Shown one piece after another: positions 6,060-45,517 of a DNA stretch of 64,000 nt. Below the pieces are notes generated by a model. The model saw only the letters and a program-made list of their open reading frames with translations, made no database searches and had not been told where the DNA came from. Position 1 is the first letter of the stretch, and every line of letters starts with the position of its first letter. The position numbers and the translations under genes are program-made. The stretch covers positions 78,292 to 142,291 of the forward strand of contig DATMGL010000008.1 in NCBI GenBank assembly GCA_035555575.1. Direction: 5' to 3'. Source of the stretch: Sphingobium sp. GTDB lineage: Bacteria > Pseudomonadota > Alphaproteobacteria > Sphingomonadales > Sphingomonadaceae.

Positions 6060-6075
6060 GGCGCCCACTCCACGA

Positions 6076-6615: not shown

Positions 6616-6821
6616 CTGTGAAACCTTCGTAATTGTTGGGACCAGATGCCTATGTGAAAGACGCATCCGGGCAAGGGATGATCGGGTCGTGGCAATGCAC
6701 GGATGTCCTCCCTGGGCGTGATCGACCCGACAGCTCCGCGCCCGCTGACGTGACCGAATATGCCACCCCGGCCCTAACGAAATATGTATTGCAATTAATT
6801 GCACGCATAGTGGTGGGGCGA

Positions 6822-7849
6822 TCAGAGCAGCCGCTTTAACTCCTCCCGCTGCGCGATCTTGGTACGCTCACGCTTGACATATTCGGGGTCGATCAACTCG
6901 ATTGCTCGCTGGTGGTAGGGATGGGCACGTTCAAATATGATGTGCGGACGATATTCGGGCCACAGTTTTGCAAAGTGGGTCATCCACTGCTCTTCCGTGA
7001 TATGCTTCGCTATATCGGGCTCGTCTTCGTTGAGATCGTCAAGCGTCGCGAACATTTCCTCAACACCGTAGTGCTCACGATAATAAGCGATCTCCTTGGC
7101 CATGCGCTCGAACTCGATCTCGCGGTCCGACCGCGAACGGAGTGGAGCGACCGTAGTCGGTTTCTTCCTGGGTTCGAGCACGCCGAGCGACGGGACCGGA
7201 GGAAACTGCTTGTCGCTGATCGAGAAAGACGACGAACGAGTGCCTGCAATGATCTGGGCGTCAGACCAGCCCCGTGTCAGCCGGTAGCGGACGGCGGAAG
7301 TGGTTACGCCCTGCAATTTTGCGAGGCGGGAGGCCGTGTAGACTTCGCCGGTCCGCTGATCGTAGATCGTCAGGGTATCGCCCTTGTTGTTGTTCTGCGT
7401 TCGCTTGTCGGCCGGCGCACCTTGCCGGGGGCGTATTCGGGGTCATTGTTGTCGATCCTGTCGAGGGTGGCTCCCGACACTGATATGGGGCCGACGAGCC
7501 GAAGGAAGTGGCGAAATTCATGGAAGTCGGGATGCACGATGTTGCCCCGACGCTTGCTTCGGGTCAGCATGTTCCGGTGCGAGTTGGCTTCCGCCCCATA
7601 TTTCCGTCGAAGCTGCATTTTTGTCAGATGCTGGAGGTCATGCACAAACTCGGCATCCTGCATTTTCTCAAGGGTGTGACAGGTATGATCGGATTTGCTT
7701 ATGAGCGTGACGTCGTATGCCGTGACGCAGGTCAGAACAGGCGCGTTTGCTGGCGCTGTGACGATTTTCTCATCGTTTACCGATGTCGCGTCATGTGAGA
7801 AAATTTCTCCGGCGGCGGACATCATGTGTGCGGCGGTATTCGACTTCAT
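6822..7849 (-). pseudogene. Phage-type HNH endonuclease-like gene with C-terminal HTH, frameshifted at ~7411-7415
   Basis: ATLDRIDNNDPEYAPGKVR continues, after adding one base, as (W)ADKRTQNNNKGDTLTIYDQRTGEVYTASRLAKLQGVTTSAVRYRLTRGWS. This joins track ORFs 7370-7849 and 6822-7316. Confidence 0.7.
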
Positions 7850-7928
7850 AGCGAAGTTCTCCTCTGCTTGCGGTGGAGGAGCGCCGAGTGTAGAGTTTCG
7901 CTAACAACCAGCGTCTCCGGCGCTCCAG

Positions 7929-7959
7929 AAAGCCCTGCCGCGCCAACGGTGGGGCTTTT
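7929..7959. terminator. Putative bidirectional intrinsic terminator
   Basis: AAAGCCCTGCCG-CGCCAA-CGGTGGGGCTTTT is a 12-bp stem (2 G-U) with A and T tracts on either side. Confidence 0.45.
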
Positions 7960-8413
7960 CCGTATCTGCTTGGTAATTTATGATGATGAGCGGGTGAAAA
8001 GGGCGTGGAAGGTGTGCGACGGTCGGTCTAAGGGACTGGAACCGCCGACATGGGGCCGCCAAGGCCGCATCGGTCCTCCGCTACCATCAAACAATTGCCT
8101 GGCGAGACCATCCCAGCAGCGTTTCCACCTCTGCTGTCATTCGGGTCCAGCTCCCGCGACGCCATGATGCGCGCGATCTCCTGATCAGCCCCCTTCTTCG
8201 CCGGCCATATTGCGTCGATCCGGCGAGTGATATCCTGCGCCCTGCCATGGGTATCGACGCGCATGGCTGACCAGTGCAGGCCGGTCGCCGCTCCGGAACC
8301 ATGGTCCCCCGTCCCTCGCTACGATTTCTAGATTGGCGGCAAAGCGAGCCTAGCCGCCATGAGCCGGGTGTCCAATCACGGAGACGACCGCGGAGGCATG
8401 GCCTCCATCGGCC

Positions 8414-8869
8414 TCAGCGTCGGCCAGCGACCTCCGGAGCCGCGCCTCGCTGCCAGATTGGCGCATGAACCTGCACGGGGACCGATACTGTGCCGTCTGT
8501 GCCGGGCGCGGCTGTGTGGAACCCGCGTCGGGCATCAGGTATAGCCATGACATGGTCGATGGCGTCGATATCCCCGATCATGTCGAGCGACGCGCCGTTG
8601 ACGATGACCCGCGCTCGATAATGGCCATGCCCGTCCGGACGCGACATGTCCTCTGGCAACATGGTTGCGGGCGACAGACCGGGGCCGATGTCACCCGCAA
8701 TGGCGGTATCGCAGCGCTGCACGCTGATTATCCCCACCAGCAGGCCAGTCCCCAATATGGTGCCGCAGGCGGCCGCCATGACCAGCATCTCGACCCGCCC
8801 CCAGAAGCGGGCGTTCCGCATGCTCATGCTATGCGCTTCCCGAAATGCCTCGATCGGGCCGGCCGGCAT
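8414..8869 (-). CDS. Degenerate retropepsin-like (TIGR02281-type) aspartic protease-like membrane protein
   Basis: N-terminal TM, then DGHGHYRARVIVNGASLDMIGDIDA; the catalytic DTG/DSG appears as DID. Confidence 0.4.
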   Translation of the reverse strand: MPAGPIEAFREAHSMSMRNARFWGRVEMLVMAAACGTILGTGLLVGIISVQRCDTAIAGDIGPGLSPATMLPEDMSRPDGHGHYRARVIVNGASLDMIGDIDAIDHVMAIPDARRGFHTAAPGTDGTVSVPVQVHAPIWQRGAAPEVAGRR

Positions 8870-8875
8870 GGCGGC

Positions 8876-9514
8876 TCATCCATGATCGAGCAGCCGCAGC
8901 AGATCGGGTAGCCCCTCGGCACGCAACCCGTAGCTGCGCCGGCCGGTCTGGATCAGGTCGAATGGCAGGTTGTGATCGGCGAACCCGTTCCGCAGGCGGC
9001 AGATATAGACTTTGATGACTCGCCGGGAGCCGGATTTGACGCCTGCCGCATGAGCCAGCTCGTCCTGGGACACAAATTCACCGGCGGACATCAACAGCCG
9101 CAGCAAGACACCCGCTCCTACCTGCCCGAGTGACGGGAAGCGCTCGCGGATGCGCAGCCGGACGATTTCATCCCAGATCGGCGGTAGCGCCGCCGCCTTT
9201 CCCGACACCGCCATCTTGCGTTCCAACAAGGCCGAAAGCGCCTTGTCCGTTGGTAACGCAAATGCTTCGTCAAGCACGGATACCGGCTTGCCGTGCGGTT
9301 CTGACAACGGCGTTGGGCGACCATGGTCACCGGCGTCTGCTATGCCGTCGCCAAGCAGCGCCTTGAGCGTCGAGGTCGCCTCCTGGATCAACCCGAGAAG
9401 CTGGTTGACCTCGTCCCATCGGTCGGCGCGCCGGACCAGGCGCGCGGCTGGCGCCAAGACCTCATCCTGCGGAGCGCAGGCCTCGACCGGTCTTGAGGAA
9501 GCCCGGCCGCTCAT
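8876..9514 (-). CDS. OmpR/PhoB-type winged-helix DNA-binding protein without a receiver domain
   Basis: LLRLLMSAGEFVSQDELAHAAG...RRVIKVYICRLRNGF...IQTGRRSYGL is a Trans_reg_C pattern. ATGA overlap with the upstream gene. Confidence 0.7.
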   Translation of the reverse strand: MSGRASSRPVEACAPQDEVLAPAARLVRRADRWDEVNQLLGLIQEATSTLKALLGDGIADAGDHGRPTPLSEPHGKPVSVLDEAFALPTDKALSALLERKMAVSGKAAALPPIWDEIVRLRIRERFPSLGQVGAGVLLRLLMSAGEFVSQDELAHAAGVKSGSRRVIKVYICRLRNGFADHNLPFDLIQTGRRSYGLRAEGLPDLLRLLDHG

Positions 9515-30895: not shown

Positions 30896-33800
30896 TCAGT
30901 CCAGATCGCTTGCTGTGAGTTCACGCGCCATTTCGAGACCCGGATCATCGAGCTGGATCACAATCGCGGTGTAACCGCGCCGCAGCAGGTCGCCGAGGCC
31001 GCCGACCCCGTTGACGACAACGGGCGGCTGCGCACCGCCTGCGCCCCCGTCCGGTGCGAGCAGAGCGAGGGCCAGGTGCGCAGGAAGGCTGATCTCGCCC
31101 CCGGCGCCGATCGTCCCGCCGGCAGGAAGAACGAACCGGTCGATAATGATCTGGCTGGGGCTGATGTCGCCATTCCCCACCACCGGCTGATCATTGACAA
31201 TGAAGGAACCGCTTTCATTCGTGGTGATCTTGCCGAACGCGCCGGTCACTGTTCCGCCCGGCGCCTTCACCGTTACCGCACCGCCATTCACCTGAACGTC
31301 GAGCGGCGTGTCGGAGGTCAGGGCGACGGCCCCGCCGGCGCTGATCCGCGATGTCACCGCGCCGGGCGCCGCCACGGCGACACCGCCCCCCGCCGTGATC
31401 GAACTCGAGATGCCACCGGCGCCGGCGGTGAGCGAGGCATCGCCCGTCGTGACGACCTGCGAACTGATCGAGCCCAGGTCCGCACGGACATTCACCGGCC
31501 CGCCGGCGTTGATGCTGCCGCTGACGTCGCCACTGGATGCCGTAAGACTGACGCCGCCGCCGGCCGTGACGTTGCTCGATATCCCCGTCTGCGATGCGAT
31601 GGTGGCCGTGCCACCTGCCGCGATGGAGCCGCCGACCGCGCCGCCGGCCGTGACCGTCACGCCGCTTTGCGACGACACATTGCGCGCGACATCGCTCATA
31701 TAGGCGAGCAGGACCGGCCCGCCCGCAATGATTGATCCGGTGCCGGAGTCATTGGCGGTGACCGCAACGGAACCGCCCGCCCGGATCGGCCCGCTCTCGC
31801 TGCCCGCCACCGAGGCGCTGACATTGCCCAGCGTATCCAGCGTGTTCGCGGTGAACCGCTGGTCGCCACTCAGCTGCGACGCGAAATCGCCCGCCAGCTT
31901 CACCGTCGCTGCGGAGAAATCACCGCCGGTGATCGTCAAGCTGCCGAGCCGCAGCGCATCGCTGCCGACATTGCCGAGCAGGATGGCACCTTCACCCGTT
32001 GCGCCCGCGAGGCCGGAACCGGTGACGATCTCGACATTCTGGCCGCCATGGCTGGTCCCGATCAGCTGCGCGCCGATCGTCACCGCGCCACGGGCGGGCC
32101 GCGTGTCGAACTGCGTGACCGATCGGGTCACGCGCACCGTCGCATCGGCAGCGTCACCGGATAAGCGCAGGCTGTTCGCGGCATAGCGCGCGCCGTTGAG
32201 TATCGTCCGGTTCGCTACCATGTTCACCGCGTCGAGCCGGACCCGGCTGCCCAGCGCGCCGAGTTCCGCCGTGCCGGCATGCACGGTAAAGCCCTGCCGC
32301 CCCGCCACGGTTCCATCCACCATGCCGAACCGCGCGGTGCCCGAGGCGACCAGGTTGGTGCTGCCGGTCAGGCTCGTTGCGCCATCGACGGTGAAATCAC
32401 GCGCGTCATAGCTGCCGGAAAGACTTGTCGCGCCGGTGTAGCGCTGGCTCCCGCTCGTGGTGACGTCGGCCGTGACAATCGTCGTGCCGGTCACGCCGAG
32501 CCCGGCAAGCGACGACTGGCCGAGGCTCACCCGCCCGCCGGCCAGTGTGAGCGCCGCGGTGCCGGTCACGCCGGCGATGCTGATATCGCCTGCGAGCGCA
32601 TGGATGCTGGTGTCGCCGTTCAGCAGGAGCCTGTCGGCGGTAAAATCCCCCGTAGCGAGCGTCAACTGGCCGATGAGGCGACTGCCGGCACCGGCCAGCG
32701 TCAGCCCATTAAGGGTCACATCGCCGAAGTTCAGCGTGCGAATGCCGCGAAGCATGGCATTCTCGGCATAGGTGCCGGACGCGACATGGATGGCATCGCC
32801 GTCGGTCGAGGCGGCAAACGCCGTCTGGATCGACAAGGCCGCGCGGCCGCCGCCAGCAAGCGTCCCCCGTCCAACGTGGAAATCCGCACTATTGCCGGTG
32901 CCGCTCCAGCCCTGCACGACGCTCGCGCCCGTGGCGCCAAGGTTTACAGCAAAGTCGAAGGCGTTTTGACGGCTGTTCTGGAAGTAGGTGAACTGCGCCC
33001 CATCAGGCCGATGCGCGTCGTTCCGAACCGTAAAGCCATAGCCCGCAATGGTGAGCAGGCCCGGGTCCAGCAGCGTCGAGGAGTCCTGCAGATAAAGACC
33101 GGCCGCCTCGCCAAACCGGTTGCTCGCCTCGATCACCACGCCGGTCAGTTGCTGATTGCTGCCGCCCCCGGCGACATTATTCGCCTGATAAAGCGCCAGG
33201 CCGCCCCAGGCGTTGCCTGAGGTGTGGCTGTTACGCACCGTCACGTTCGCGCTGTCGGTGATCGCGATCCCGGTGCCGGCCGTCACGCCGGTCACGGTCA
33301 CGCCGTCGATCAGCGCGCCGACCGCCGCATTGAGGTCAAGGCCGGTCTTGCGCGAGCCGTTGATCGTCACATCGGTGATCGAGAAGCCGGTGTTGCGGGC
33401 AAAGGCGTCGCCCACCGCTTCGACCTTGATGCCATAATTGGAATTGCCCAGCGCGGCCGACGAGCCGTTGAGCGTGAAGCCGCTCAGCGTCACCGCGTCA
33501 CCCTTGACGCGGATGCCATAGCTATTGTGGCCGCTGGCATCGAGCAGGGTGACGCCCTGCCCCTGCCCGCTCACGGTCATGCCCTTTTCGAGAAGCAGGG
33601 TGTTGGTGAGCAGATGCGTGCCTGCCGACAGGTTGAGCACATCGCCTGCCGTCGCGAGCGATACCGCCCGCAGCGCACTATCCGGGCCCGAACCGGACGT
33701 CACGAAAAGCTGGCCAGCGACCAGACGGGCAAGGCCGGCGCCAGCCACATCGACACCATGGGTGATCAGGTCTTCGAGCGTGAACAGCTCATCCAGCGCC

Positions 33801-36800
33801 AGATCACCTGCCCGCGTGCCGTTGAACGACACGCCGGTCAGGTCGAGCGAGCTCCCGCTGCGCCACATGATATGCTGGACCGTGTCCGCGCCGGCGACGA
33901 AGTCGTTGATCCCCGCGAAGCTGATCGTGCCCGCACCGGACAGCGTGGTCGGCAGGTAGATCGCATAGCCATTGTTGACGAAGCTGTTGTCGATGAAGCG
34001 GGTCGTGCCCGGCAGCGCATAACCCGGCTCGACCGCGAACACCTGATGATTGTTGGTGAACTGATTGCCGGTGACGTTGAGCGTGCCGACATCCCGCATC
34101 ATCAGCACCGCGCCATAGGTGGCCTCGCCGGCAGGGGTCCAACTGCTCGTGCCGACATTGCTGACGCGGTTGCCGGTAAAATCCACCTGACTGGCGCGGA
34201 AAGCCTTGAAAATCGCGCCGAACGACTGATCCGAAGCGCCGCCATTGCGGACGATATTATCAGCGATGGTGATCGTCGGATAAGCGCCCGCGCCCGCCTG
34301 TTGGCGCAAGGCAATGTGCCCGGCCGTATTATCCAGCAGATTATCCGAGAAGACAGCGCTGCTGATCTGCGTGCCATCCGTCGCGGTGCCCGCGCCGCTG
34401 CGCGTATCGAAGGCCGCCCAGCCGCGAATGTTGAGGAACTGCGAATTGGTGATCGAGATGGCACCACCATATTGGCCGCCCGAGAAGCCGTGGCGCCCGG
34501 CCACGCCCTCTCCATCGATCCGCACGCCGTCCACCGTCAGGTTGGTCACATGCCCGCCGCCGATCACGGACGAGCCCGCCGCGCCGCTGACGGCGAAGTT
34601 GCTGAGCGTCAGGTCGCTGAACGTGCCGGAGAGCTGGATACCGCCGGTGAGCAGGGTCGCGCCCATGCCCGCGCCGTTAAGCGTGAGGCCCTTGTCGATC
34701 GTGACGGTCTCCGCGAAGGTTCCAGCGCCCGCATTGATCGTGCCACCGGCCCGCGCATCGCGTATCGCGGTGTTGATCGAGAGGCCGTCAATCACGGAGA
34801 AGATGTTGGTTCCGAAACCGTCCGCGAACCCCTCGATCGAGCTGGCGCCTGCCGTGCCGATGCCCAGCGCGAAGGCGGCGGCGTCGTCAAAGCTGGTGCG
34901 GTAGAAGGCGAACTGGCTATCGAGGCCGTCGCTACGATGATCGCTGTTGCGCACCACATAGTCGAAGCCCGCCAGATGAAGCGGCCCGAAGCCTTGCGTG
35001 ACCGATTCAAGCTGCGAGTAGAGGCCGATCGCCTCCTCAAACCGGTTGTCGCTGGCGTCAATGGTGATCCCGCCGGTCTGCCCGCTATAGCCGCTCGCCT
35101 TGTTGGCCTGATAGAGCGCGACCCCGCCCCACTCGTTGCCGAGCGTGTGGACGCCGCTCAGCGTCACATTCGCGCTGTCGGTGATCTGGATGCCGGCGCC
35201 GCCGGTCAGCACCGCGGGATCGGCCACGCTGCGACCATCGGCCGTGACATTGGTGATGGTCGCGCCCACCACACCGTTGAGATCCAGCTCGGCGCGGCGT
35301 GACCCGCGGATCGTCACATCGCTGATCGCAAAGTTGGACAGGCGCTGGCTGGAGCCGCCGGGGGTGTTCACATGGCCCGCCGGATCGGGCTGGACCTTGA
35401 TCCCATAGTTGCCGAGCAACTGTTCACTGCCATAAAGGGTGAAGTTGCCGAGCGTCACATTGTCGGCGAAGACCGAGATCGTGCCCAGACCATTCGAGCC
35501 CGGACCGGTGCCGACAGCACGCCCGTCGAGGATCACCCCCGCCTCGGATTGGCCGATCAACGCGATCGACCTGGCGATCACGAGCGGAGACCCGCCCAGA
35601 TCATAGGTGCCGTTCAGCATCCGCACCGTGTCGCCGGCCTGCGCGACGGCCACCGTCTCCGCGATGCCGGTGGTGATCGCGATCGTTTCGTAGCTCTCCG
35701 CCCCGTCAATGACCTCGACACCGCGCGCGCGGCCATCGCTCCTGAAGGCCAGCACGCCGCCATCGCCAAAGATGTTGTCGGTGAAGATGTGGCCCCAGTC
35801 GAGTGCCTCGCTGAGGATACCGACAGACCGCACGGGCACATCGACACCGCTGAAGCTGTTGCCGGTGATCGTGGCGGCCCCGGTCGGGTCCTGCTGCCAG
35901 CCGATAGCCGGAATGCGCCCCTGGAACTGGATGCCGCCCTGTCCGGCAAGATCATTGCCGAAGAACTGGTTGCCCGAGAGGATGCGCTGCGACGCGGCGC
36001 TGTTGAGGCCGACACCGCCGGCGATCTTCACCATGGCGCTGGGGATGCTGCCATGGGTTGCCGCGCTGCCCCCGTAGAAGATGTTGTCCTCGAGCGTGAA
36101 GCGCTCGACAATGTCGCCTTCGCCAAAGCTGCTGATGAAAAAGTTGATCTCGGTCGCGTTGCCGCGATTGTCGATCACCGAATGACGCATGGTGAACGCG
36201 TCGCCGATCACCTCGAACGCCTTGTTGTCGCCATTGGCATAGGGCTTGAAGCCCAGCCCCTCGATCGTCACGCCCGTGCCGGAGACGAAATGCTGCGCGC
36301 CAAAACCGGCCTGATGGGCAGCGGTGACATAAGCGGCGACCGCGTTGGCATCGGTGATCGCGGCCCCTTGCGCATCGACGCCGCGGATCGTGATATGATC
36401 CTTGGTAACATACAGGCCGAACATCTGGCCGCCGGCCCCGCCGAAATAATCGACGCCGGTCACGCCTTCGATATAGTCGCCCGGCCGCACCGTGACCGTG
36501 CCACCGGTGACGACGGCGTCGACGCCGCCCTGCACCGTGTTGATCGGGCTTGGCGCCGCGCCCTGCGCGTTCGTCGTGCCGGCGGGGTCGACAGTCACAT
36601 GCGTGCGGTTCGACGCGGTATAAGCCTGATTATAGACCGAGAGCCCGCCATTGGCCCGGCTCAGCGCCAGCAGCCGTGCCTGTTCATCAAGCGATGGCCC
36701 CGCCCCCAGCAAGCCGTTGCCCGAGGTGGTGGCGCTCCCGTCCCAGATGCCGTTCAGATGGAGGATGACGCCCCATTCATTGCCGAACGGGCCATCCTCG

Positions 36801-38383
36801 TTGCCGCTGATATTGAATCCCGGCGCCGCGGCATCGACATATTGCACGGAGATCGCGCTCTTGGTGTTGTCGATCAGATTGCCGGTGATCGCAAGGCTGG
36901 TGGCGCCGCGCCCGTCGACCAGCAGGCCGTTACGGACGCCGGTGATCACATTATCGGCGATCGTCGCATTGTCCACGCCATTGGCCAGCGCGATGCCCCG
37001 CGTGATCGACCCGTTCCAGTCGACATCCCACGCCGCCTGATCCGCAGGCAGCGTGCCCGCGAATGTCAGGCCCGTGACCCTCGCGCCGTTGCCGCTGACG
37101 TTCAGGCCGTTGATCGGGCCACCGGTCAGCGGCACCCGGATCGTCGCGACGCCGCCGCCGTCGATCGTGACATTGTTCCGGCCGATCGTCGCGCCGGCGG
37201 CATAAATGCCCGCGCCAAGGTCAAGCGTGGTGCCGCCTGCCACCATGCCGATCACGCCCAGCGCATCCGCGATGAAATTGCCGTCACCTGTCGTATCCGC
37301 ACCGTTCACGTCGAGGGCGAGCGAGAGCGCCCCGCCGGTCACGCCGATGCTGCCCGCTCCCAGGATATGCCGGGCACCGAGCGCCAGATGGCCCGTCGCC
37401 GCGACATCGTCCGCAACGTTGATCTCGTTGACAGCCTCGACACGCGCACGGCCGGCCGCACCTGCGTCGATGCCGCCGCCCAGCCGGACATTGCCGGTGC
37501 CAGCCGACAGCAGGATGGTGCCATCCGGGTCCGCGGTTGCGCTCGCCACGGAGATGACACCGGTATTGACCACCTGATCAATCACCGCGCTCACAGCCTT
37601 CGCGGTCATCAGGACATGTCCGCCGCCTGCGTTGATCGTGCCGCTATTCTCTATGAGCGCATTGTCGCTGCCCAGTCCGATCTCAAGAAAGCCGGTGCCG
37701 TCCAGATCGAGCGTGGCGCTGCTGCCAGACGCGAGCATCACATGGCCGAGGCGGGCGTTGATAATGCCCTGATTGCGAACGACCGGCGCGAAGAAGGCGG
37801 CGATCCCCTGATCGGCGATGCTGATGCTTGCGCCAGCTTGGACGATGATTTCGCTGGTCGAAGCGCCGGACGCTGCAAAGGTGATCGGACCGCCGCTCAT
37901 GAAATTCTGATCGACGATAGTCGCAGTGCTGGCGATCAACCCGCCCACATTGACATCCGCCGTGCCGGCAAAAAGAACGCCGTTGCCGTTGATCACCGCA
38001 ACGATCCCGTTGGCGTTGAGCTGGCCGGCGATTTGCGAGGGCGCATCCCCCCCAACGACCCGGTTGAGCGCGACGGAACGGCTGCCGGGCTGGGAAAAGT
38101 TCACCTGCGCCCCAGAGCCGATATCGAAGCTGTCCCAGTTGATGAGCGCCCGGTCACTCGTCTGGGTGATCTGCAACGTGCCGCCGCCCGGCGCGCCGAT
38201 CGTCGCTGTGCCACCGACCACCACACCGCCGGTCGGGAGCGCGCTGGCATCCTGCGCGAACACAGGCCGCGCGGCCACCAGTGCGAGCAGTGCGGCCGAT
38301 GCCATGAGCATGGGCCGCGGCCGCAAGAGCACGCCACGACCAGTCGGATCAGCGACCGCTCCAGCGACGTTATACTTGCTCAT
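30896..38383 (-). CDS. Two-partner secretion exoprotein (TpsA, filamentous haemagglutinin family) with parallel beta-helix modules
   Basis: Signal peptide ending ..VFAQ. TPS domain ALINWDSFDIG...ALNRV...GQLNANG..INGNGVLF. G/T/S/N/V-rich beta-helix repeats. Adjacent to TpsB. Confidence 0.9.
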   Translation of the reverse strand: MSKYNVAGAVADPTGRGVLLRPRPMLMASAALLALVAARPVFAQDASALPTGGVVVGGTATIGAPGGGTLQITQTSDRALINWDSFDIGSGAQVNFSQPGSRSVALNRVVGGDAPSQIAGQLNANGIVAVINGNGVLFAGTADVNVGGLIASTATIVDQNFMSGGPITFAASGASTSEIIVQAGASISIADQGIAAFFAPVVRNQGIINARLGHVMLASGSSATLDLDGTGFLEIGLGSDNALIENSGTINAGGGHVLMTAKAVSAVIDQVVNTGVISVASATADPDGTILLSAGTGNVRLGGGIDAGAAGRARVEAVNEINVADDVAATGHLALGARHILGAGSIGVTGGALSLALDVNGADTTGDGNFIADALGVIGMVAGGTTLDLGAGIYAAGATIGRNNVTIDGGGVATIRVPLTGGPINGLNVSGNGARVTGLTFAGTLPADQAAWDVDWNGSITRGIALANGVDNATIADNVITGVRNGLLVDGRGATSLAITGNLIDNTKSAISVQYVDAAAPGFNISGNEDGPFGNEWGVILHLNGIWDGSATTSGNGLLGAGPSLDEQARLLALSRANGGLSVYNQAYTASNRTHVTVDPAGTTNAQGAAPSPINTVQGGVDAVVTGGTVTVRPGDYIEGVTGVDYFGGAGGQMFGLYVTKDHITIRGVDAQGAAITDANAVAAYVTAAHQAGFGAQHFVSGTGVTIEGLGFKPYANGDNKAFEVIGDAFTMRHSVIDNRGNATEINFFISSFGEGDIVERFTLEDNIFYGGSAATHGSIPSAMVKIAGGVGLNSAASQRILSGNQFFGNDLAGQGGIQFQGRIPAIGWQQDPTGAATITGNSFSGVDVPVRSVGILSEALDWGHIFTDNIFGDGGVLAFRSDGRARGVEVIDGAESYETIAITTGIAETVAVAQAGDTVRMLNGTYDLGGSPLVIARSIALIGQSEAGVILDGRAVGTGPGSNGLGTISVFADNVTLGNFTLYGSEQLLGNYGIKVQPDPAGHVNTPGGSSQRLSNFAISDVTIRGSRRAELDLNGVVGATITNVTADGRSVADPAVLTGGAGIQITDSANVTLSGVHTLGNEWGGVALYQANKASGYSGQTGGITIDASDNRFEEAIGLYSQLESVTQGFGPLHLAGFDYVVRNSDHRSDGLDSQFAFYRTSFDDAAAFALGIGTAGASSIEGFADGFGTNIFSVIDGLSINTAIRDARAGGTINAGAGTFAETVTIDKGLTLNGAGMGATLLTGGIQLSGTFSDLTLSNFAVSGAAGSSVIGGGHVTNLTVDGVRIDGEGVAGRHGFSGGQYGGAISITNSQFLNIRGWAAFDTRSGAGTATDGTQISSAVFSDNLLDNTAGHIALRQQAGAGAYPTITIADNIVRNGGASDQSFGAIFKAFRASQVDFTGNRVSNVGTSSWTPAGEATYGAVLMMRDVGTLNVTGNQFTNNHQVFAVEPGYALPGTTRFIDNSFVNNGYAIYLPTTLSGAGTISFAGINDFVAGADTVQHIMWRSGSSLDLTGVSFNGTRAGDLALDELFTLEDLITHGVDVAGAGLARLVAGQLFVTSGSGPDSALRAVSLATAGDVLNLSAGTHLLTNTLLLEKGMTVSGQGQGVTLLDASGHNSYGIRVKGDAVTLSGFTLNGSSAALGNSNYGIKVEAVGDAFARNTGFSITDVTINGSRKTGLDLNAAVGALIDGVTVTGVTAGTGIAITDSANVTVRNSHTSGNAWGGLALYQANNVAGGGSNQQLTGVVIEASNRFGEAAGLYLQDSSTLLDPGLLTIAGYGFTVRNDAHRPDGAQFTYFQNSRQNAFDFAVNLGATGASVVQGWSGTGNSADFHVGRGTLAGGGRAALSIQTAFAASTDGDAIHVASGTYAENAMLRGIRTLNFGDVTLNGLTLAGAGSRLIGQLTLATGDFTADRLLLNGDTSIHALAGDISIAGVTGTAALTLAGGRVSLGQSSLAGLGVTGTTIVTADVTTSGSQRYTGATSLSGSYDARDFTVDGATSLTGSTNLVASGTARFGMVDGTVAGRQGFTVHAGTAELGALGSRVRLDAVNMVANRTILNGARYAANSLRLSGDAADATVRVTRSVTQFDTRPARGAVTIGAQLIGTSHGGQNVEIVTGSGLAGATGEGAILLGNVGSDALRLGSLTITGGDFSAATVKLAGDFASQLSGDQRFTANTLDTLGNVSASVAGSESGPIRAGGSVAVTANDSGTGSIIAGGPVLLAYMSDVARNVSSQSGVTVTAGGAVGGSIAAGGTATIASQTGISSNVTAGGGVSLTASSGDVSGSINAGGPVNVRADLGSISSQVVTTGDASLTAGAGGISSSITAGGGVAVAAPGAVTSRISAGGAVALTSDTPLDVQVNGGAVTVKAPGGTVTGAFGKITTNESGSFIVNDQPVVGNGDISPSQIIIDRFVLPAGGTIGAGGEISLPAHLALALLAPDGGAGGAQPPVVVNGVGGLGDLLRRGYTAIVIQLDDPGLEMARELTASDLD

Positions 38384-38432: not shown

Positions 38433-40103
38433 TCAGTAAGCAGCGCTGAATGAAAGGAAGATGCGGCCGTCCCGGTCGCCCAGGGCGCCGACATCGCGGC
38501 CGATCGGCCTGGCATATTCCATCGACAGGCCGAAGCGTCCCGCAATCCCGACCCGCAGGCCCGCGCCGACCGATCGCAGACTGCTGCGCCTTGCCTCACC
38601 CGGCAGCGGACGGTTCTGATAAACCCGGCCACCCTCATAATAGACATAGGGCTCCACCGACCCCATGCCGCGCGCGGGGATGGTGTAGAAAAGCTCCGCC
38701 TTGCCGGCGAAACCCTTGTCGCCCGTTATTTCCGAGGGATCATAGGCGCGGCCATATTCGGTGCTGCCAAGGCCCATCTCCTCTGAAGCGAGCAGGCTGT
38801 TGCGCGTCCATTGCCCGGTCGCGCCGAGCAGGAGGCGCAGGCCGCGATGAATGGGTTGAACCCGCGTGATCTCGCCGTTCACTTTCGTGAAAACGCCCGA
38901 GGCGGTGGCGCGGGATTTGGCCGGGTCGCCCCCTGCCGTCGCACCGAGCAACCCAAGCCCCTGCGTGATGCTGCCCCGCACCGTGACCTGCCCGCCCAGA
39001 CGATCGGCATGATTGACCATGAGTCCCGCGTTCGCCGTGCGGATCTTGTCGTCAAAAACCGGGTCCAGAAGGATATTCCGCGAATTGCTATCCCGTGCCG
39101 TCCACGAAAACTGGCCAAGAATATTGGTCTCCCGGCTGCGCAGGAACGGATATTGCAGCCCGAAACCCCAGGTGAGGCTTTCGCCCTCGAGCGCAAGCAC
39201 GCGCAATTCATCGCCGGGCCGGGTCCGCGCATAGCTGGCGAACACGCTCGCACGCAGGCCGGAGCCGCCAATGGGCTGATCATAGGTTCCGGACACGAAG
39301 CCCAGTTCGCCCCCCTGATCGGGTGCGCCGACACCCGTTATGGCCAGCCGCCCTCCGGCACGGGCCAGATCGTTCAACACGATGCCGGCGTAAAACTGGG
39401 CCGGCCCCAGCCAGCGCGATCCGCGATTGTCGACCGCGACGAACGCTTCGACCGGCTTGCGCGCGACGACCAGGCTGAGGTCCGCCGCCCCCTCGACATC
39501 GGCAGAGGGCGTGAGCACGGCGCGGACGTCCGCCCCCTGAAGATCACGCGCCAGCAACAGCGCGCGCGCCAGATCCTTTCCGGATGTCGGCCGCTCCGCG
39601 CGAACCGGCGCAAGATAGGCTTCCAGATACGGGCGATAACCGCCGGGCTTTCCTTCGATCCGTGTCTGATCGATAAACCCTTCGACGATGTGGACCGTGG
39701 CGACGCCATTCTCGATGCGCTGCGGCGCGATGATCGCCCGCGAAAGCGCATAACCCCGGCGCCGATATTCGGCGGTCACCTGCTCGGCCAGCCGAAACAG
39801 GTCGGAGAGCGGCATGGCGCGGTTCAGATAGGGCCGGGCGAGCGCGTCCAGGGCATCCATCGGCACCACCGTCGCCCCGTCAAACCGCACCGCCGTCAAT
39901 GTGACCGGCAGCGCGCTCGCCGCAACGGCCTCCTGTGTCGGTAAATCCGGCACATCGAGCGGCGAAACGCTCGGCGCATCGGATTGCGCCCGAAAGCGCT
40001 CGTCGATCCGTCCGGGATCAACAGCCTGCTGCGCCTGTGCACCGACGCCCGAAAGCGCCAAAGCTGAAACAACGAAAAACCGCCCCCTGATCTTCATTCC
40101 CAC
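38433..40103 (-). CDS. ShlB/FhaC/HecB-family TpsB transporter
   Basis: Signal peptide, POTRA segment YRRRGYALSRA...IVEG, VDNRGS, loop 6 LGSTEYGRAY, C-terminal FLSFSAAY. Confidence 0.9.
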   Translation of the reverse strand: MGMKIRGRFFVVSALALSGVGAQAQQAVDPGRIDERFRAQSDAPSVSPLDVPDLPTQEAVAASALPVTLTAVRFDGATVVPMDALDALARPYLNRAMPLSDLFRLAEQVTAEYRRRGYALSRAIIAPQRIENGVATVHIVEGFIDQTRIEGKPGGYRPYLEAYLAPVRAERPTSGKDLARALLLARDLQGADVRAVLTPSADVEGAADLSLVVARKPVEAFVAVDNRGSRWLGPAQFYAGIVLNDLARAGGRLAITGVGAPDQGGELGFVSGTYDQPIGGSGLRASVFASYARTRPGDELRVLALEGESLTWGFGLQYPFLRSRETNILGQFSWTARDSNSRNILLDPVFDDKIRTANAGLMVNHADRLGGQVTVRGSITQGLGLLGATAGGDPAKSRATASGVFTKVNGEITRVQPIHRGLRLLLGATGQWTRNSLLASEEMGLGSTEYGRAYDPSEITGDKGFAGKAELFYTIPARGMGSVEPYVYYEGGRVYQNRPLPGEARRSSLRSVGAGLRVGIAGRFGLSMEYARPIGRDVGALGDRDGRIFLSFSAAY

Positions 40104-40172: not shown

Positions 40173-41462
40173 TCAGGCGCGCCCGAGTCCGCCCGGGCCA
40201 TCGCCTGCGCGAAAATCACGCCTGCTCCCCGCCAGATCGCCAAGCGACACGGGCCGCACGTCCCGGTCACCGCCCCGATGATAGCTCCAGCTTCGCCAGG
40301 CGCTGGCCCGTCCAAGATGATATCCCTGCTGCCAGCAGTCGGCCTGAGAGGCCTGACGCGTTTGCAATTCGGCCGCCATCCGGCTTTGCGCTTCCGTCTC
40401 GACGCCCTCGACGATGACGACCGGTGCGATCGCGCCGGCCATGCCGACCAGATATTGCAGAAACTCGAAATTCTTCGGATCGGCAGCGGCGCGCCGCAGG
40501 AAGAAACCATCCAGCTTGATGATGTCGGGACTGATCGCCATGGCCCGGCGCACCGAGGCATGGCCGACGCCAAAATCATCGAGCGCGACACGGCAGCCAA
40601 GCGCGCGCAGTTCCCGCACAAACGCAAAGGCGCCAGCGTCGAGCGCCGCCGATTCCGTGATTTCCACAACGAGACGCTCCGCCATGCCGCGCGAGCGCTT
40701 CAGTCGCGCGAACAGCGAGGCCCACCAGATGTCGCACCGCGCGCTCTGGCCGGAAATATTCACGCCGAGCACCGCCGATGGATGATTTTCGAGTTCATCG
40801 AGCACCGCAGCCATGATCCGGCGGTCAAAAAGACGCATCAAGCCAAGCGCCTCCAGAGCAGGGATGAAGGCGGATGGCGGCACAAACCGGCCGTCCCGGT
40901 CAACCATGCGCGCCAGCGCCTCGCAATAGAGACTCCCCGAGCCCCCGGAGGCCGACCGGACAGGCTGCCAGTACATGTGCACCCGGCCATCGCTCATCGC
41001 CGCAAGCACATCGGCCGCAATGCTCATATTCTGCCGATATTGCCGGGACCACGCCCCCTCGTCACCCGCCGCCACATAAGCCGGCAGAGCCTGCCCCGCC
41101 ACGGCGCAGGACAGGGAAAGATGGAGGTCCACCCCCATCAGCTTCACCGGCTCAAGCGACAGCCGGTCCAGCAGGCTTTCGAGAATATCCTCGACGCCCG
41201 CAGAAGGTCGGTGTTCGAACGAGATCTCGACCAGTCCGGGACGGCGCACCCATGACAGGCACGCGCGCCCCCGCAATCGATCGAGGACCAGATCCAGACT
41301 GGCGATCGCCGCCTCGGCAGCGTCGGCCCCATATGCCGACAATATGTGGGAGATATTGTCTATGCGCAGGAGCGCATGCGCTTCAGCACCCTCGTGGGAG
41401 GAAGGATTTGATGGCGCCGCCCACAGATCTGCGTCGGTCCGTTCAACATCGATTGCGATCAT
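40173..41462 (-). CDS. EAL-domain c-di-GMP phosphodiesterase with degenerate N-terminal domain
   Basis: YWQP, EALAR, VNIS, VEITE, ALDDFGVG, IKLD, EGVET and QGY are all present. RBS GAGGAAG precedes ATG 41462. Confidence 0.88.
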   Translation of the reverse strand: MIAIDVERTDADLWAAPSNPSSHEGAEAHALLRIDNISHILSAYGADAAEAAIASLDLVLDRLRGRACLSWVRRPGLVEISFEHRPSAGVEDILESLLDRLSLEPVKLMGVDLHLSLSCAVAGQALPAYVAAGDEGAWSRQYRQNMSIAADVLAAMSDGRVHMYWQPVRSASGGSGSLYCEALARMVDRDGRFVPPSAFIPALEALGLMRLFDRRIMAAVLDELENHPSAVLGVNISGQSARCDIWWASLFARLKRSRGMAERLVVEITESAALDAGAFAFVRELRALGCRVALDDFGVGHASVRRAMAISPDIIKLDGFFLRRAAADPKNFEFLQYLVGMAGAIAPVVIVEGVETEAQSRMAAELQTRQASQADCWQQGYHLGRASAWRSWSYHRGGDRDVRPVSLGDLAGSRRDFRAGDGPGGLGRA

Positions 41463-41472
41463 CGACTTCCTC

Positions 41473-42438
41473 TCATGTCGGACGAACCACCCGCTCGAAC
41501 TTGAGACAAAATATCCAATTCTGTATCAAAGGGCAATAGCTGTTAATGGCGGTTCGTAAAAACCGTTTAATATCAGTTGGTTGTTGAGCGGCTAGATGAT
41601 CCGGTGCCGCATCGGACGTGGCAGGACTCGCCCCATCCTCACATGAGCTGGCGGCCTGCAGCGCCACAGGCGGCACGGGCCGCCCTGTTGGAAACCAGTC
41701 AGTTTGCTTGCGATGGGAGGATGACCGGCGGCTCTCCTTGCGCGAGCGGCGCCACATGCGCGAGGCGATCTCGCGCTCTTCCGGCCCCATCGCGCTGGTG
41801 TAGATTGCGGTTGTCTTGATATCGGCATGACCGAGCCATTTTTGAACAAGGGTCAGTGGAACATTGGACTGAATGGCTTTGACTCCGAAGCCATGTCGTA
41901 ACCCTTTTGGAGTCGCGTAGCTTCCGGTGATGCCTGCTTCGCCCATGACTTCACATATTCTGCGGTATCCGGTCATCCGTGACCATGGCCAAAGACGACC
42001 TGCATTGAAGTTTTCGGATTTAAACCATTTTTTGAGATAGTTAAGAAGCTGCTTAGGCAATGGGATTGACCTGAACATGGTCTTTCCGCGCTTTTTCAGG
42101 CTTTTAATGACTACATTCTCGGCTTTGAAGTCGATGCTATTCACGGTCATCGATAGAGCTTCAGAAATACGGCATCCGGTCACTGCCATCATCCAGCAAA
42201 AATTCCGGACAGATACTTTGAATTCCTGAGCCGCCGCCAGGAATGATTCCAACTCCGAGGACGTCAAATACTTCCTCTGACCCTCGCGATTATAGATGGT
42301 CCAGGGTGTGTCCGCACGCCTGGCTGCCGTTGCGCTGAGCTGAGACGGGGGGCTGTCTGCGGAGAGGCGCGCTGCCTGCGGCTCGGGCCCTGATACAGAA
42401 TTGGATAAAGTGTCACAGACTTTAAGCTTATTTTTCAT
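41473..42438 (-). CDS. FimB/FimE-like small tyrosine recombinase 1 (body lies inside the invertible segment)
   Basis: RKYLT, TGCRISEAL, LKK, PKGLRH, LGHADIKTTAIY. No core-binding domain. The ORF crosses both inverted repeats. Confidence 0.88.
   Translation of the reverse strand: MKNKLKVCDTLSNSVSGPEPQAARLSADSPPSQLSATAARRADTPWTIYNREGQRKYLTSSELESFLAAAQEFKVSVRNFCWMMAVTGCRISEALSMTVNSIDFKAENVVIKSLKKRGKTMFRSIPLPKQLLNYLKKWFKSENFNAGRLWPWSRMTGYRRICEVMGEAGITGSYATPKGLRHGFGVKAIQSNVPLTLVQKWLGHADIKTTAIYTSAMGPEEREIASRMWRRSRKESRRSSSHRKQTDWFPTGRPVPPVALQAASSCEDGASPATSDAAPDHLAAQQPTDIKRFLRTAINSYCPLIQNWIFCLKFERVVRPT
41501..41529 (+). repeat. Left recombination site (IRL), 11-7-11 core structure
   Basis: TTGAGACAAAA-TATCCAA-TTCTGTATCAA: the arms are 9/11 mutually inverted around a 7-bp asymmetric spacer. 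41512-41528 is the perfect reverse complement of 42391-42407. Confidence 0.85.
41512..42407. mobile_element. Putative invertible DNA segment (phase-variation switch), 896 bp
   Basis: Bounded by perfect 17-bp inverted repeats TATCCAATTCTGTATCA / TGATACAGAATTGGATA. Lies between a recombinase and the EAL-TpsB-TpsA operon. Confidence 0.8.
42390..42418 (-). repeat. Right recombination site (IRR)
   Basis: The minus strand reads CTGTGACACTT-TATCCAA-TTCTGTATCAG. Spacer and inner arm match IRL; the outer arm is diverged. Confidence 0.85.
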
Positions 42439-42893
42439 ACAGATAGCCCTTTAATCTGCGCTACATGGGGATGAACGTCGACTGCGCATTTCCCGATGTT
42501 CATCGGCGAAAGAGAATGCTCGGAACCCGTTATGGTTTCCTCACGACCGCTGGAACAGCTTGCACAAATATCGGAGCATGCTGAGCGGCCCACCGATTGA
42601 TGAACCATGGGGACTGACCGCAAGACGTTGCCGAGTCCCATGTTCATTGCTGCGGGTAGCAAGGGCGGATTGGCCAGGCGTGCTCAACTGTCTTTTGACA
42701 GGTTCACGACCGGGCCGGCGAGCCAGATGCGCGCTGGACCACGCCACATATCACGCAATAGCAGATCATGAACGGCGGCTGGAGCAAAGGCCACTTCCCG
42801 GTGCATGGGAGCACCGGGTGGGCAAGTCGCAAGGCGCACGCCGTCAGGTTTCCGGTGATGCGGAGGGCAGAGCCACCCCGCCGTTCCGCCGGA

Positions 42894-43712
42894 CTAGGCG
42901 ACCAGGCGCCTTGGCTTCAATTCATCTTCTGTGGAGAGTCCCTGTGAGCCACCGACAAAGCGGTCATCGAGCAGGGCGGCCAGCTTGAGCAACATCATGT
43001 CATCATATGCGACCCGATTGCCTTGCCGCTCCTCCAGCGCAAGGGCCGGCGTGTGTCGGATCGCGCCGGACCCGAGCGCCGCATGTTTGGCCCGCGTCGA
43101 TCGTGGGTTACGCGATCGGTTCATGCTGAATTTCCACGTGCGCGAGGCGAACTCCCGCTCTTCCGGGCCCATCGCGCTGGTGTAGATTGCGGTTGTCTTG
43201 ATATCGGCATGCCCCAACCAGCGCTGGATGAGGTTCAGGGGCACATTGGACTGGATCGCACAGACACCGAAGGCATGGCGCAGGCCTTTCGGTGTGGCGT
43301 GCGGACCAACAATCCCTGCACTGACCATCACCTCCCGGACGCGGCGATAGCCGGTCATCCGCGACCATGGCCACAGCCGCTCGCGAGGGAGCACGCCGAC
43401 ACTGAGCAAGGCTCTAAGCAGATTGAGCAATTCCGGTGGCAAGGGAATTGTTCTGAATATCTTCTTCCCGCGCTTCTTCAGACATTCGACAATGACATGC
43501 CCGGACTCAAAATCGATACTCTGCCTCGACAGGGCCAGCGCTTCTGAAATCCTGCACCCGGTTGTTGCCAGCATCCAGCAGAAACTGTGCACGGTTTCAC
43601 CCCGTTGCGCGGCTGCATATAAAAAAGAAACACGCTCTTTCGCAGTCAAATATTTACGCTGTCCCACTCCATCATACACGGACCCAAGCATCAATTCTCC
43701 ACCCCTCGGCAT
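42894..43712 (-). CDS. FimB/FimE-like small tyrosine recombinase 2 (outside the invertible segment)
   Basis: GQRKYLT, TGCRISEAL, LKKRG, PKGLRH, LGHADIKTTAIY. Paralog of recombinase 1. Likely start ATG 43691. Confidence 0.9.
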   Translation of the reverse strand: MPRGGELMLGSVYDGVGQRKYLTAKERVSFLYAAAQRGETVHSFCWMLATTGCRISEALALSRQSIDFESGHVIVECLKKRGKKIFRTIPLPPELLNLLRALLSVGVLPRERLWPWSRMTGYRRVREVMVSAGIVGPHATPKGLRHAFGVCAIQSNVPLNLIQRWLGHADIKTTAIYTSAMGPEEREFASRTWKFSMNRSRNPRSTRAKHAALGSGAIRHTPALALEERQGNRVAYDDMMLLKLAALLDDRFVGGSQGLSTEDELKPRRLVA

Positions 43713-44092
43713 GGTTAGTTCAGGGCTAACTGCGCTTATAAAGTTTACAAAAGTTTACATTATTTTACATTTGGGGTTTCGAAGCGGAGAGGCCGCACGG
43801 CCTTCATGTGCGCCATCGATGAATTGCATCTGATTTTGCTCGACTATCGGCCGGACTGTTCGTGGCCGGGGCGGAAGCCAGGATGGTCCCGGTCGCGTCA
43901 TAACCTTGCGCTGGACGGGGAGCCTCGATGGCTGCTGCTCGCAAAGGGATCGGGCGACCCGGCCGCCAAAGCTGCCGCACCCTGTTCAAACCCCCGATGG
44001 GGATGGCCCGCCGCGTTTCGCCCGGCGTCTCGCCGTGCCGCTCTATGCTGGCCGGCTGCAATGGGCCTTGCCGTTGCTGCGCAGACCTGGCG

Positions 44093-45517
44093 TTAAATCA
44101 CTTTCCCCGGATTGAGGATATTGTTGGGGTCCATCGTCGCCTTGAGCATCCGCATCAGCTTCAATTCCTCCGGCGTGCGCGAAAAGTGCAGAAACTCGCG
44201 CTTGATGCTGCCGATGCCATGCTCGGCGGTGATCGACCCGCCCCATTTGCCGACGGCTTCATAGACCAGTGCTTCCATCTCATGTTCGGGCATCGGATCG
44301 CGCGGCACCCGCGCTGACAGATGCAGGTTCGAATCCGCCAGATGGCCGAAGAACACCGTCACGCAATCCGGCCATTTTTCCAGCAGCAGATCACGCACAT
44401 AAGGAATGAAATCGCCGATCTTGCGTGTCGGCAGGCTCACATCGAAGGCGACTTGCGGCCAGTGCACCTTGTAGAACTCGCCTGGGCAATCACGGACCGC
44501 CCAGATCTCCTGCCGCTGCTTGTCGGACTGGGCGATCACCGCATCCTGCACCAGCCCGGATTCGATCATGCCGCCCAGCACTTCCTCAAAACGCTCCGGG
44601 TCGCGCCCGGGGTCCGTGCCGAGGATCTCGATCAGCGCATAAACGTTATAACCATGCGCCAGCGGCGGCTGACGGCCAAGCGCCGTGGTCCCGATATGGT
44701 AGAAATCCGGCCACATCACCTCAAAGGCCGAGAGCGTGCTGCTGAAGGCGGAATTGCACTGCCTGAGCAATTCGAGCGTCGCGGCATAGTCCTCGATCGC
44801 GACCACCGCCGTGCAGGCGCTCCTTGGCTTGGGGAACAGGCGCAGCACCAGCCGGGTGATGACGCCGAGCGTCCCTTCGCTGCCGATGAAGAGGTGCTTC
44901 AGATCATAGCCGGCATTATTCTTGATCATCACATTGAGCGAACTGATGATGGTGCCATCCGCCAGCACGGCCTCGACGCCCAGAATGAGGTCGCGCATCA
45001 TGCCGTAGCGCAACACCCGGTTCCCGCCGGCATTGGTCGCGGCATTCCCGCCGACCTGCGCGGTGCCGCGGCCGCCAAGATCAAGCGGGAAGAGGAAGCC
45101 CGCATCGTCGGCCGCGACCTGCACCGTCTCCAGCACTGTGCCGGCCAGCACGGTCATCGTGCGCCCGGCTTCATCCAGTTCCTCGATGCCGCGCATCCGC
45201 TCCATGGAGAGCAGCACGCACGGGCGGTCGGCCAGGCCGCCGGCGCACAGGCTGGTGAGGCCGCCCTGCGGCACGACCGGATAACGCGCCTCGTTGCAGA
45301 TCGCCATGATACGCGAGACCTGCGCGGTCGTGCGCGGATAGGCGATACCCGGCAGCGCAATCCCCGCGGGCATGACGTTCGTGAAGTCGGTGCTATGCCG
45401 CGCAAAATCCGCTTCCGAGGCATCCTTGATGATGTCCGGCCCGAGTTCGGCCTTGAGACGGGCGATCACCGCCGCGCCTTTGCCTGCATCCTGCGAGCCC
45501 TCGATAATCGCTGTCAT
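44093..45517 (-). CDS. FAD-binding oxidoreductase (GlcD/D-2-hydroxyacid dehydrogenase family)
   Basis: PQGGLTSL, GGNAATNAGG, GSEGTLG, FGHLADSNLH, TAEHGIG, DPNNILNPGK. Confidence 0.9.
   Translation of the reverse strand: MTAIIEGSQDAGKGAAVIARLKAELGPDIIKDASEADFARHSTDFTNVMPAGIALPGIAYPRTTAQVSRIMAICNEARYPVVPQGGLTSLCAGGLADRPCVLLSMERMRGIEELDEAGRTMTVLAGTVLETVQVAADDAGFLFPLDLGGRGTAQVGGNAATNAGGNRVLRYGMMRDLILGVEAVLADGTIISSLNVMIKNNAGYDLKHLFIGSEGTLGVITRLVLRLFPKPRSACTAVVAIEDYAATLELLRQCNSAFSSTLSAFEVMWPDFYHIGTTALGRQPPLAHGYNVYALIEILGTDPGRDPERFEEVLGGMIESGLVQDAVIAQSDKQRQEIWAVRDCPGEFYKVHWPQVAFDVSLPTRKIGDFIPYVRDLLLEKWPDCVTVFFGHLADSNLHLSARVPRDPMPEHEMEALVYEAVGKWGGSITAEHGIGSIKREFLHFSRTPEELKLMRMLKATMDPNNILNPGKVI

Follow-up and report, generated by a model that had tools for sequence, protein, structure and literature searches.

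A 64,000-nucleotide stretch of a Sphingobium sp. contig (DATMGL010000008.1, assembly GCA_035555575.1; hereafter “the window”) carries a ~900-bp segment that is bounded by two inverted repeat (IR) arms, encloses the body of a tyrosine recombinase gene (rec1), and adjoins a gene for an EAL-domain cyclic di-GMP (c-di-GMP) phosphodiesterase. We consider it reasonably likely that this segment is an inversion switch conserved in Sphingomonadales, in which the start codon of Rec1 lies outside its own cassette. Because the usual internal back-up start has been lost in the window lineage, Rec1 would then be made only when its body is fused to the outside start, while the return flip would fall to a second recombinase, Rec2. 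The elements of the switch, listed along the minus strand from rec2 to the EAL-domain gene, are as follows.

42894-43712, minus strand: rec2, encoding a tyrosine recombinase (PF00589), with no flanking IR
42439-42893, minus strand: flank X, the 455-nt spacer from rec2 to the outside start, i.e., between rec2 and the rec1 ATG
42436-42451, minus strand: outside start of rec1, with a Shine–Dalgarno (SD) sequence AAGGG (42447-42451), an 8-nt spacer, and the ATG (42436-42438)
42391-42417: right arm (IRR), the recombination site on flank X, reading TGTGACA-CTTTATCCAATTC-TGTATCA on the minus strand and translated as CDTLSNSVS
42298-42390, minus strand: rec1 leader, codons 17-47 (31 codons), with no in-frame stop
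41749-42297, minus strand: Rec1 catalytic core, residues 48-230, including R90, K115/116, K178, R181, H182, H204, and Y213
41529-41748, minus strand: segment tail, in the rec1 frame here, unconserved as protein and without a coding signal in G+C content at third codon positions (GC3)
41508-41536, minus strand: P_out, a candidate outward promoter (-35 TTGCCC at 41531-41536, 17-nt spacer, -10 TATTTT at 41508-41513)
41502-41528: left arm (IRL), the recombination site on flank Y (EAL side), whose outer half-site TGAGACA provides an in-frame TGA at 41502-41504
40173-41462, minus strand: EAL-domain (c-di-GMP phosphodiesterase) gene, its ATG 39 nt from IRL

The two arms form the longest IR of the region (27 nt each, at 41502-41528 and 42391-42417, 85% complementary) and share a perfect 17-nt core, TATCCAATTCTGTATCA, at 41512-41528 and 42391-42407. 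This core pair is unique in the window at ≤3 mismatches, with 0.05 matches expected by chance, and the core was found at only these two places in the whole 3.4-Mb genome. With the Rec1 body between its arms, the locus displays the unique IR pair and adjacent recombinase that characterize an inverton. It lies in an island of low G+C content (41.5-43.8 kb) within a window of ~65% G+C.

The rec1 open reading frame (ORF; 41473-42438, minus strand) encodes 321 amino acids with a Phage_integrase domain at residues 56-215, and PF00589 was matched at 89 bits by Rec1 and at 80.9 bits by Rec2 (cut-off 27.1). Alignment to XerD (1a0p) identified R90, K115/116, R181, H182, H204, and Y213 in Rec1, i.e., five of the six catalytic residues, the first catalytic His being replaced by Lys (K178, TPKGLRH) throughout the family, Rec1 included. 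Scores for the FimB-type tyrosine-type DNA invertase profile NF007370 (60.7 bits vs a cut-off of 221) and for NF007371 (44.3 bits vs 222) fell short of the respective thresholds; Rec1 residues 53-220 nevertheless cover positions 8-183 of the 200 in NF007370. Rec1 has a catalytic-domain-only architecture, i.e., ~200 amino acids and no N-terminal core-binding domain, and family members starting at the internal Met comprise ~190-200 amino acids counted from G53. The catalytic motifs of Rec2 are intact, and its start is likely Met8 (43691), which has a GGAG SD and occupies the family’s usual internal-start position. Its nearest relatives are IR-flanked recombinases from other invertons. No family members other than Rec1 and Rec2 are encoded in the genome, and their sole site is the IR pair, so that Rec2 most plausibly acts on the same switch as Rec1. 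Just upstream of rec2 (43744-43771), we also observed two copies and one partial copy of GTTTACA (GTTTACA-AAA-GTTTACA-TTATT-TTACA), which resemble the recombinase half-site TGTTACA and could form an autoregulatory binding array.

The original prediction, made from the letters of the window, was that the only start codon of rec1 lies outside the segment that the enzyme would invert, and this held upon reanalysis. The ATG (42438) is located 21 nt beyond the right arm, and no other start precedes the RKYL core: the next in-frame ATG, GTG, or TTG is TTG 42267, the Leu of RKYL itself, and the sole near-cognate codon upstream of or within this motif is ATC 42297, which lacks an SD. When 41512-42407 was inverted in silico, the ATG opened onto MKNKLKVCDTLSNSVSKGNSC and a stop (21 amino acids), exactly the peptide that had been quoted, and the flipped rec1 body was directly preceded by the in-frame TGA at 41502-41504. 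In the assembled orientation, rec1 reads through to a stop at 41473-41475, 10 nt before the EAL ATG (41462) and overlapping its SD (TGAGAGGAAG), again as described. The promoter for the outside start is presumed to lie in flank X or upstream of rec2; none was identified, and an Rfam search of 41200-44100 matched no family. The same spacer includes a TTG-started ORF of 75 amino acids (42435-42662, minus strand) whose TGA overlaps the rec1 ATG (ATGA, 42438-42435), a classic coupling arrangement; the ORF may have arisen by chance in GC-rich DNA.

Next, we evaluated how widely this architecture is shared. Searching relatives, a set with one genome per species, and metagenomes yielded ~170 loci, and comparative counts refer to the 88 distinct IR-positive loci among them, almost all from Sphingomonadales. 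Across these 88 loci, a site of the form TGTnACA-N13-TGTAtCA is found 95-125 nt upstream of an invariant GQRKYL motif, with a second, inverted copy ~850-950 nt away, and the recombinase is inside the segment in every case. The layout of the FimB/FimE type, in which the recombinase lies outside a short promoter element, was seen neither for Rec1 nor at any of the 88 loci. Members of a Sphingosinicella group have the same sites with more divergent arms, below the score threshold. The module can be summarized as an outside SD and ATG, followed by the cassette (IR, leader, recombinase, tail, IR), followed by the EAL gene. The latter abuts the cassette in most loci, is always directed away from it, and occupies the flank without the outside ATG, with its start a few tens of nucleotides from the site. 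On the minus strand of the window, the gene order is rec2, rec1, the EAL-domain gene, and two genes for two-partner secretion.

38433-40103, minus strand: TpsB gene (ShlB/FhaC-type), two-partner secretion, downstream of the EAL gene
30896-38383, minus strand: TpsA-like gene (2495 amino acids), two-partner secretion adhesin, co-oriented with the EAL gene

Because only a few loci have TpsB and TpsA downstream of the EAL gene, we regard the EAL gene as the conserved cargo. A conserved second cargo gene on flank X was considered and rejected, the neighbors on that side being heterogeneous and mostly convergent.

Relatives of the window displayed both orientations of the segment, with breakpoints at the repeats. 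L027 and L028 represent the same locus: their 932-bp segments align directly, at 100% identity, whereas the flanks align as reverse complements, and the breakpoints fall exactly at the 17-nt cores. In the assembly of Sphingobium faniae CGMCC 1.7749, two contigs contain an identical segment and both end inside the IR, with the leader end of the segment joined to the EAL flank in one and to the opposite flank in the other. These contigs differ by just two mismatches, both in the flank-specific outer half-site, as expected if both orientations coexist in one culture. Segment-only contigs, i.e., contigs that start and end inside the IR, were obtained from three isolates (844, 844, and 932 bp; S. 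ummariense RL-3, Sphingobium sp. C100, and S. azotifigens NBRC 15497) and explain the repeated assembly breaks at these loci. In a same-genus genome, S. aquiterrae DSM 106441 (G035), the recombinase body is oppositely oriented relative to the EAL gene, and both orientations relative to this gene are seen across species. These comparisons also bear on whether the IR-bounded unit could be a small mobile element, similar to an insertion sequence with a tyrosine recombinase, and no switch at all. Terminal inverted repeats around a recombinase gene and a G+C content below that of the surroundings would suit such an element, but a single copy per site that is EAL-adjacent across genera, the same flanks found with both orientations, and the lack of a second IR copy in the genome make it extremely improbable.

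Three loci have additional peculiarities. L027 and L028 were assigned to different genera (a Sphingosinicella and a Novosphingobium metagenome-assembled genome, or MAG), and their switch region and one 4-kb flank are 100% identical while the other flank is 92% identical, which points to recent transfer or mis-binning. L154 features a 99-nt “inverted repeat” at a contig end (2461-2559 and 3420-3518), which places flank X and its outside ATG at either side of the segment; the likeliest origin is a chimeric assembly of both orientations.

Of the 88 distinct loci, 49 have an outside ATG with an SD, located on exactly one flank, that opposite to EAL. The ATG is ~25-31 nt beyond the core, its SD (e.g., AAGGGG or GGAGG) precedes it by 5-9 nt, and its frame continues through site and leader into the recombinase. 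Among 44 distinct leaders, 27 keep this frame open across IR and leader, compared to 6 for each other frame, and across the family the leader is conserved in length and not in sequence. In the unfused orientation, the outside ATG gives short and unconserved peptides (median 26 amino acids), so that its conservation makes sense only as the start of a long isoform made upon fusion, and we conclude from this pattern that the outside ATG is a real start. The outer half-site next to EAL typically reads TGAGAC; it places a stop in the same frame and recurs across the family. Most members have in addition an internal start ~10 codons before GQRKYL, with the motif (M/V)-P-W-(T/S)-x-(Y/F) and often an SD. 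As in-frame stops separate the IR from the internal start in many members, the ancestral gene was located wholly inside the cassette. At the family’s internal Met positions, the window has ACA and ATC, with no SD.

Internal starts were lost mostly where a second, IR-less recombinase is encoded next door. Specifically, no internal ATG, GTG, or TTG was found in 7 of 12 two-recombinase loci (the window, L025, L020, L122, L123, L164, and L154), compared to 3 of 76 single-recombinase loci (Fisher p = 1.3e-5). At least three distinct clades are involved (the window group, L164/L154, and L020), and the second recombinases are of differing origins across loci. All seven loci retain an open frame of ~47 codons from the outside ATG together with intact catalytic motifs, which argues against a simple decay of Rec1. 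L164 and L154 were examined as possible pseudogenes and this was rejected, the one stop counted in each being the natural stop of an intact gene. We regard the link between internal-start loss and a second recombinase as strong but not proven. It is the pattern expected if the internal start makes enzyme in a “decapitated” state, a function that would no longer be needed, or would do harm, when a fixed recombinase serves that state.

Two rival explanations can be weighed against these observations. In the first, Rec1 is a silenced remnant: its real, internal start was lost after the arrival of Rec2, which now performs all inversions, and the outside ATG is functionless. This would account for the family’s normal start (MPW...) being internal, for the stops that separate it from the IR in many members, for the ACA and ATC found in the window where relatives carry ATG, and for a nonsense codon in the recombinase of one relative, S. 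indicum BiD32. It is harder to reconcile with an intact Rec1 core in which all family-invariant residues are present, with the SD-backed frame kept open over ~47 codons in seven out of seven loci without an internal start, and with an outside SD and ATG conserved in 49 loci despite yielding only junk peptides when unfused, and we consider it unlikely. In the second, Rec1 is made in both orientations from ATC 42297 or TTG 42267 with an internal promoter, and orientation is no gate. The ATC is located exactly at the relatives’ second Met position, TTG 42267 is preceded by GAGGGTCAGAGGAAG, and single-recombinase members must express their enzyme in both states. Yet the ATC has no SD, the TTG is preceded by a spacing of 3 nt or 13 nt, initiation at Leu58 would drop the invariant G53, R55, K56, and Y57, and the selective loss of ATG in two-recombinase loci would be left unexplained, so that we deem this possibility very unlikely. 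As for the S. indicum BiD32 locus (L030), the stop is a TAG two codons into the GQRKYL motif of the cassette recombinase (GGT TAG AGA, ~4127), which probably denotes a dead enzyme and a switch left in the fused orientation.

If Rec1 does depend on its outside start, the switch would operate as follows. In the fused state, which is the one assembled here, the outside SD and ATG 42438 are joined in frame to the Rec1 body via the right site and the 31-codon leader; the long Rec1 would be made, and a promoter in the tail would drive the EAL gene, along with TpsB and TpsA where present, so that EAL is probably ON. Inversion would part the Rec1 body from its start, leave the outside ATG with the 21-amino-acid peptide, and turn the promoter away from the EAL gene. 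A return to the fused state would then depend on Rec2, which is encoded outside the cassette and for which no further site exists in the genome. The original prediction of a Rec1 made in one orientation only, with Rec2 as orientation-independent partner, fits with segment inversion in relatives, with the outside ATG of 49 of 88 loci, and with internal-start loss. The anatomy, inversion in relatives, conservation of the outside start, and the association of internal-start loss with a second recombinase are observed. Orientation-dependent Rec1 output is predicted from the position of the start codon; we infer promoter activity, the identity of the ON state, and the assignment of each enzyme to a direction, with Rec1 proposed to drive ON to OFF and Rec2 to reset.

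Second recombinases were found in two arrangements. Those of the window, L118, L122, and L123 lie in tandem, upstream of the outside ATG, and those of L025, L020, L164, and L154 are divergent, pointing away from the cassette. A flipped promoter would face rec2 in the latter arrangement, creating a reciprocal toggle. At L025 (Sphingomonas sp. dw_22), the flank opposite EAL carries rec2 and a TpsB gene, both directed away from the cassette (5573-8905), and this cassette may toggle between the EAL gene and rec2 with adhesin genes. More tentatively, and at a confidence that stops just short of even, we propose a conserved “decapitation switch” in which the ribosome-binding site and start of the invertase lie outside its own cassette, so that each inversion detaches the enzyme from them, lineages with a second fixed invertase have repeatedly dropped the back-up start, and the resulting toggle, whose state dictates which of the two enzymes is made, sets the expression of the phosphodiesterase, and sometimes of adhesins, across Sphingomonadales.

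Outside the sites, conservation is strongest at a TTG(C/T) located 3-4 nt inward of the tail-side site, which was found in 85 of 88 loci, compared to 10 of 88 for the mirrored position next to the leader. It is followed 17 nt downstream, inside the site spacer, by a TAnnnn hexamer with G(G/C) before it. In the window this motif reads TTGCCC (41536-41531), 17 nt, and TATTTT (41513-41508), 45 nt upstream of the EAL ATG, and is split, with the -35 inside the segment and the -10 inside IRL. It fits the alphaproteobacterial sigma-70 consensus, reportedly CTTGAC-N17-CTATAT (MacLellan et al. 2006). Since the gap between the site and the EAL ATG is only 39 nt, there is no room for an independent EAL promoter. 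On this basis we infer an outward promoter, split between segment and site and facing the EAL gene as assembled. A generic promoter and terminator scan did not call the family motif, in which 8 of 12 positions matched, and its only match near the switch (TTAACA-17-CAGAAT) is not the family-conserved one.

The outside start could also be real with the states reversed, i.e., with the assembled orientation being EAL-OFF or EAL expressed by read-through, or with non-directional enzymes for which any bias arises from the amount of enzyme in each state. In most loci flank X has better -10 hexamers than the EAL flank, the two arrangements of rec2 (tandem and divergent) would be compatible with such a scheme, and the majority of the 49 loci with an outside ATG were assembled unfused (37 vs 12 fused). 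That unfused majority is consistent with extra enzyme destabilizing the fused state, and culture selection could account for the bias equally well. Conversely, the sole conserved promoter-like motif is at the tail end, the EAL-side -10 of the window is a good TATTTT, and 39 nt is too short for another promoter; overall, we see a reversed or non-directional switch as improbable.

Several observations weigh against the reading that we favor, i.e., an orientation-gated Rec1 reset by Rec2. G+C content by codon position gave no coding signal for the leader or the tail. Internal-start loss is a tendency and no rule, as 5 of the 12 two-recombinase loci keep an in-frame internal ATG (4 of them without an SD), and a phylogenetically paired test of two recombinases vs no internal start included only two supported pairs and was powerless. 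The tandem rec2 of the window points at the cassette, and a flipped promoter would run antisense to it, which is awkward for a reset by Rec2. Finally, the EAL-side -10 hexamer is usually TATTCC or TATTCG, poorer than that of the other flank, and the ON assignment is uncertain, the window itself having TATTTT.

Other parts of the original prediction fared less well. Translational coupling of rec1 to the EAL gene had been suggested from the position of the rec1 stop, and found no support in the family: recombinase 3′ ends vary, with about half of the genes stopping 40-130 nt inside the segment and the rest running through the site for arbitrary distances. We consequently rejected the stop at the EAL SD as a conserved feature. 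Given these variable ends, a tail unconserved as protein, and the lack of a GC3 signal, the stop at this position in the window looks incidental. Termination in the flipped state had been attributed to the following element.

41548-41567, plus strand: weak hairpin GGCGGTT/AACCGTT

The hairpin is indeed present, but a terminator role is not supported, as its folding energy is no better than that of shuffled sequences (z = -1.6), it has no U-tract, it is unconserved, and it was not called by the scan, which detected no terminator. Last, directionality had been ascribed to gene splitting rather than to promoter flipping alone. This wording was too strong because a promoter-like motif is conserved across the tail and IR, and promoter flipping is probably also part of the switch; both mechanisms seem to be in place.

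The switch combines features of several known systems, being closest to the orientational control of fim in function, to the Hin cassette in layout, and to phase-variable phosphodiesterases of Clostridioides difficile in output. In Salmonella, the serine invertase Hin works with a Fis-dependent enhancer, and the H-segment (hix sites, fljBA promoter) encloses the complete hin gene, start included. The likeness lies in a recombinase inside the invertible segment and an outward promoter, a candidate one here, that switches a neighboring gene from the far end; unlike Hin, Rec1 is a tyrosine recombinase (PF00589), and the candidate promoter is split, with its -35 in the segment and its -10 in the site. 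In E. coli, fimB and fimE lie outside the 314-bp fimS element with its 9-bp IRs, and FimE is controlled at the 3′ end of its mRNA through a Rho-dependent terminator inside fimS. Like Rec1, the fim enzymes are short, catalytic-domain-only tyrosine invertases, two paralogs may serve one switch, and the output of one recombinase depends on switch orientation and thereby biases switching, as predicted for Rec1. In contrast to fim, Rec1 is inside a ~900-bp cassette, and the site severs it from its own start at the 5′ end. This “orientational control” of fimE was reportedly described by Kulasekara & Blomfield (1999) and by Joyce & Dorman (2002). The idea is echoed in PMC9881135, and Chu & Blomfield 2007 is among the references of PMC2845655.

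Inversion also controls an EAL-type phosphodiesterase, and c-di-GMP-dependent traits, in the pdcB and pdcC switches of Clostridioides difficile, which are acted upon by RecV (PMC9286219). These are small intergenic switches with a distant recombinase, unrelated in sequence and without a self-contained cassette. Gene-altering “partial intergenic” invertons, with one repeat inside a coding sequence and the other outside so that the protein is changed, have been reported (Milman et al. 2023, PMC9881135; Chanin et al., PMC10028968), and those described involve domain swaps in specificity or surface proteins, or early stops. By its coordinates, the Rec1 locus belongs to this partial intergenic, gene-altering class. 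Our literature search found no invertase with its own start codon outside its cassette, and no description of the sphingomonad module.

Directional bias is a central design question for inversion switches. Whereas fim relies on a terminator that alters how stable the fimE mRNA is, the bias would here be intrinsic to the gene, with the recombination site placed between the start codon of the enzyme and its body. The family provides natural controls, with and without an outside start, with and without an internal start, and with one or two recombinases, which can be tested in culturable and non-pathogenic sphingomonads. It would also represent a widespread and undescribed phase-variable c-di-GMP phosphodiesterase module in an environmentally important order, implying bistable motile/sessile or adhesive states.

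A few further observations concern the EAL gene and the number of cassettes. The 5′ leader of the EAL gene (window 41463-41501) is conserved at the DNA level with the EAL-side flanks of the distant loci L044 and L020, sharing GTTCGTCCGRC preceded by a CGAAC..GTTCG-type pairing; in the window, the fold of this 5′ untranslated region was no better than that of shuffled sequence (z = -0.8). The EAL gene at L020 (G032:C1, ~2240200-2241500) is split over two frames, its tblastn pieces meeting at 5997/5999, a pattern suggestive of either a frameshift or a sequencing error. In several genomes there are two or three distinct EAL-linked cassettes that differ in their site spacers, including L026 and L064 in S. 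aquiterrae, L020 and L021 in G032, and three such cassettes (L073, L076, and L078) in one Sphingomonas MAG, which suggests parallel, independently addressed switches.

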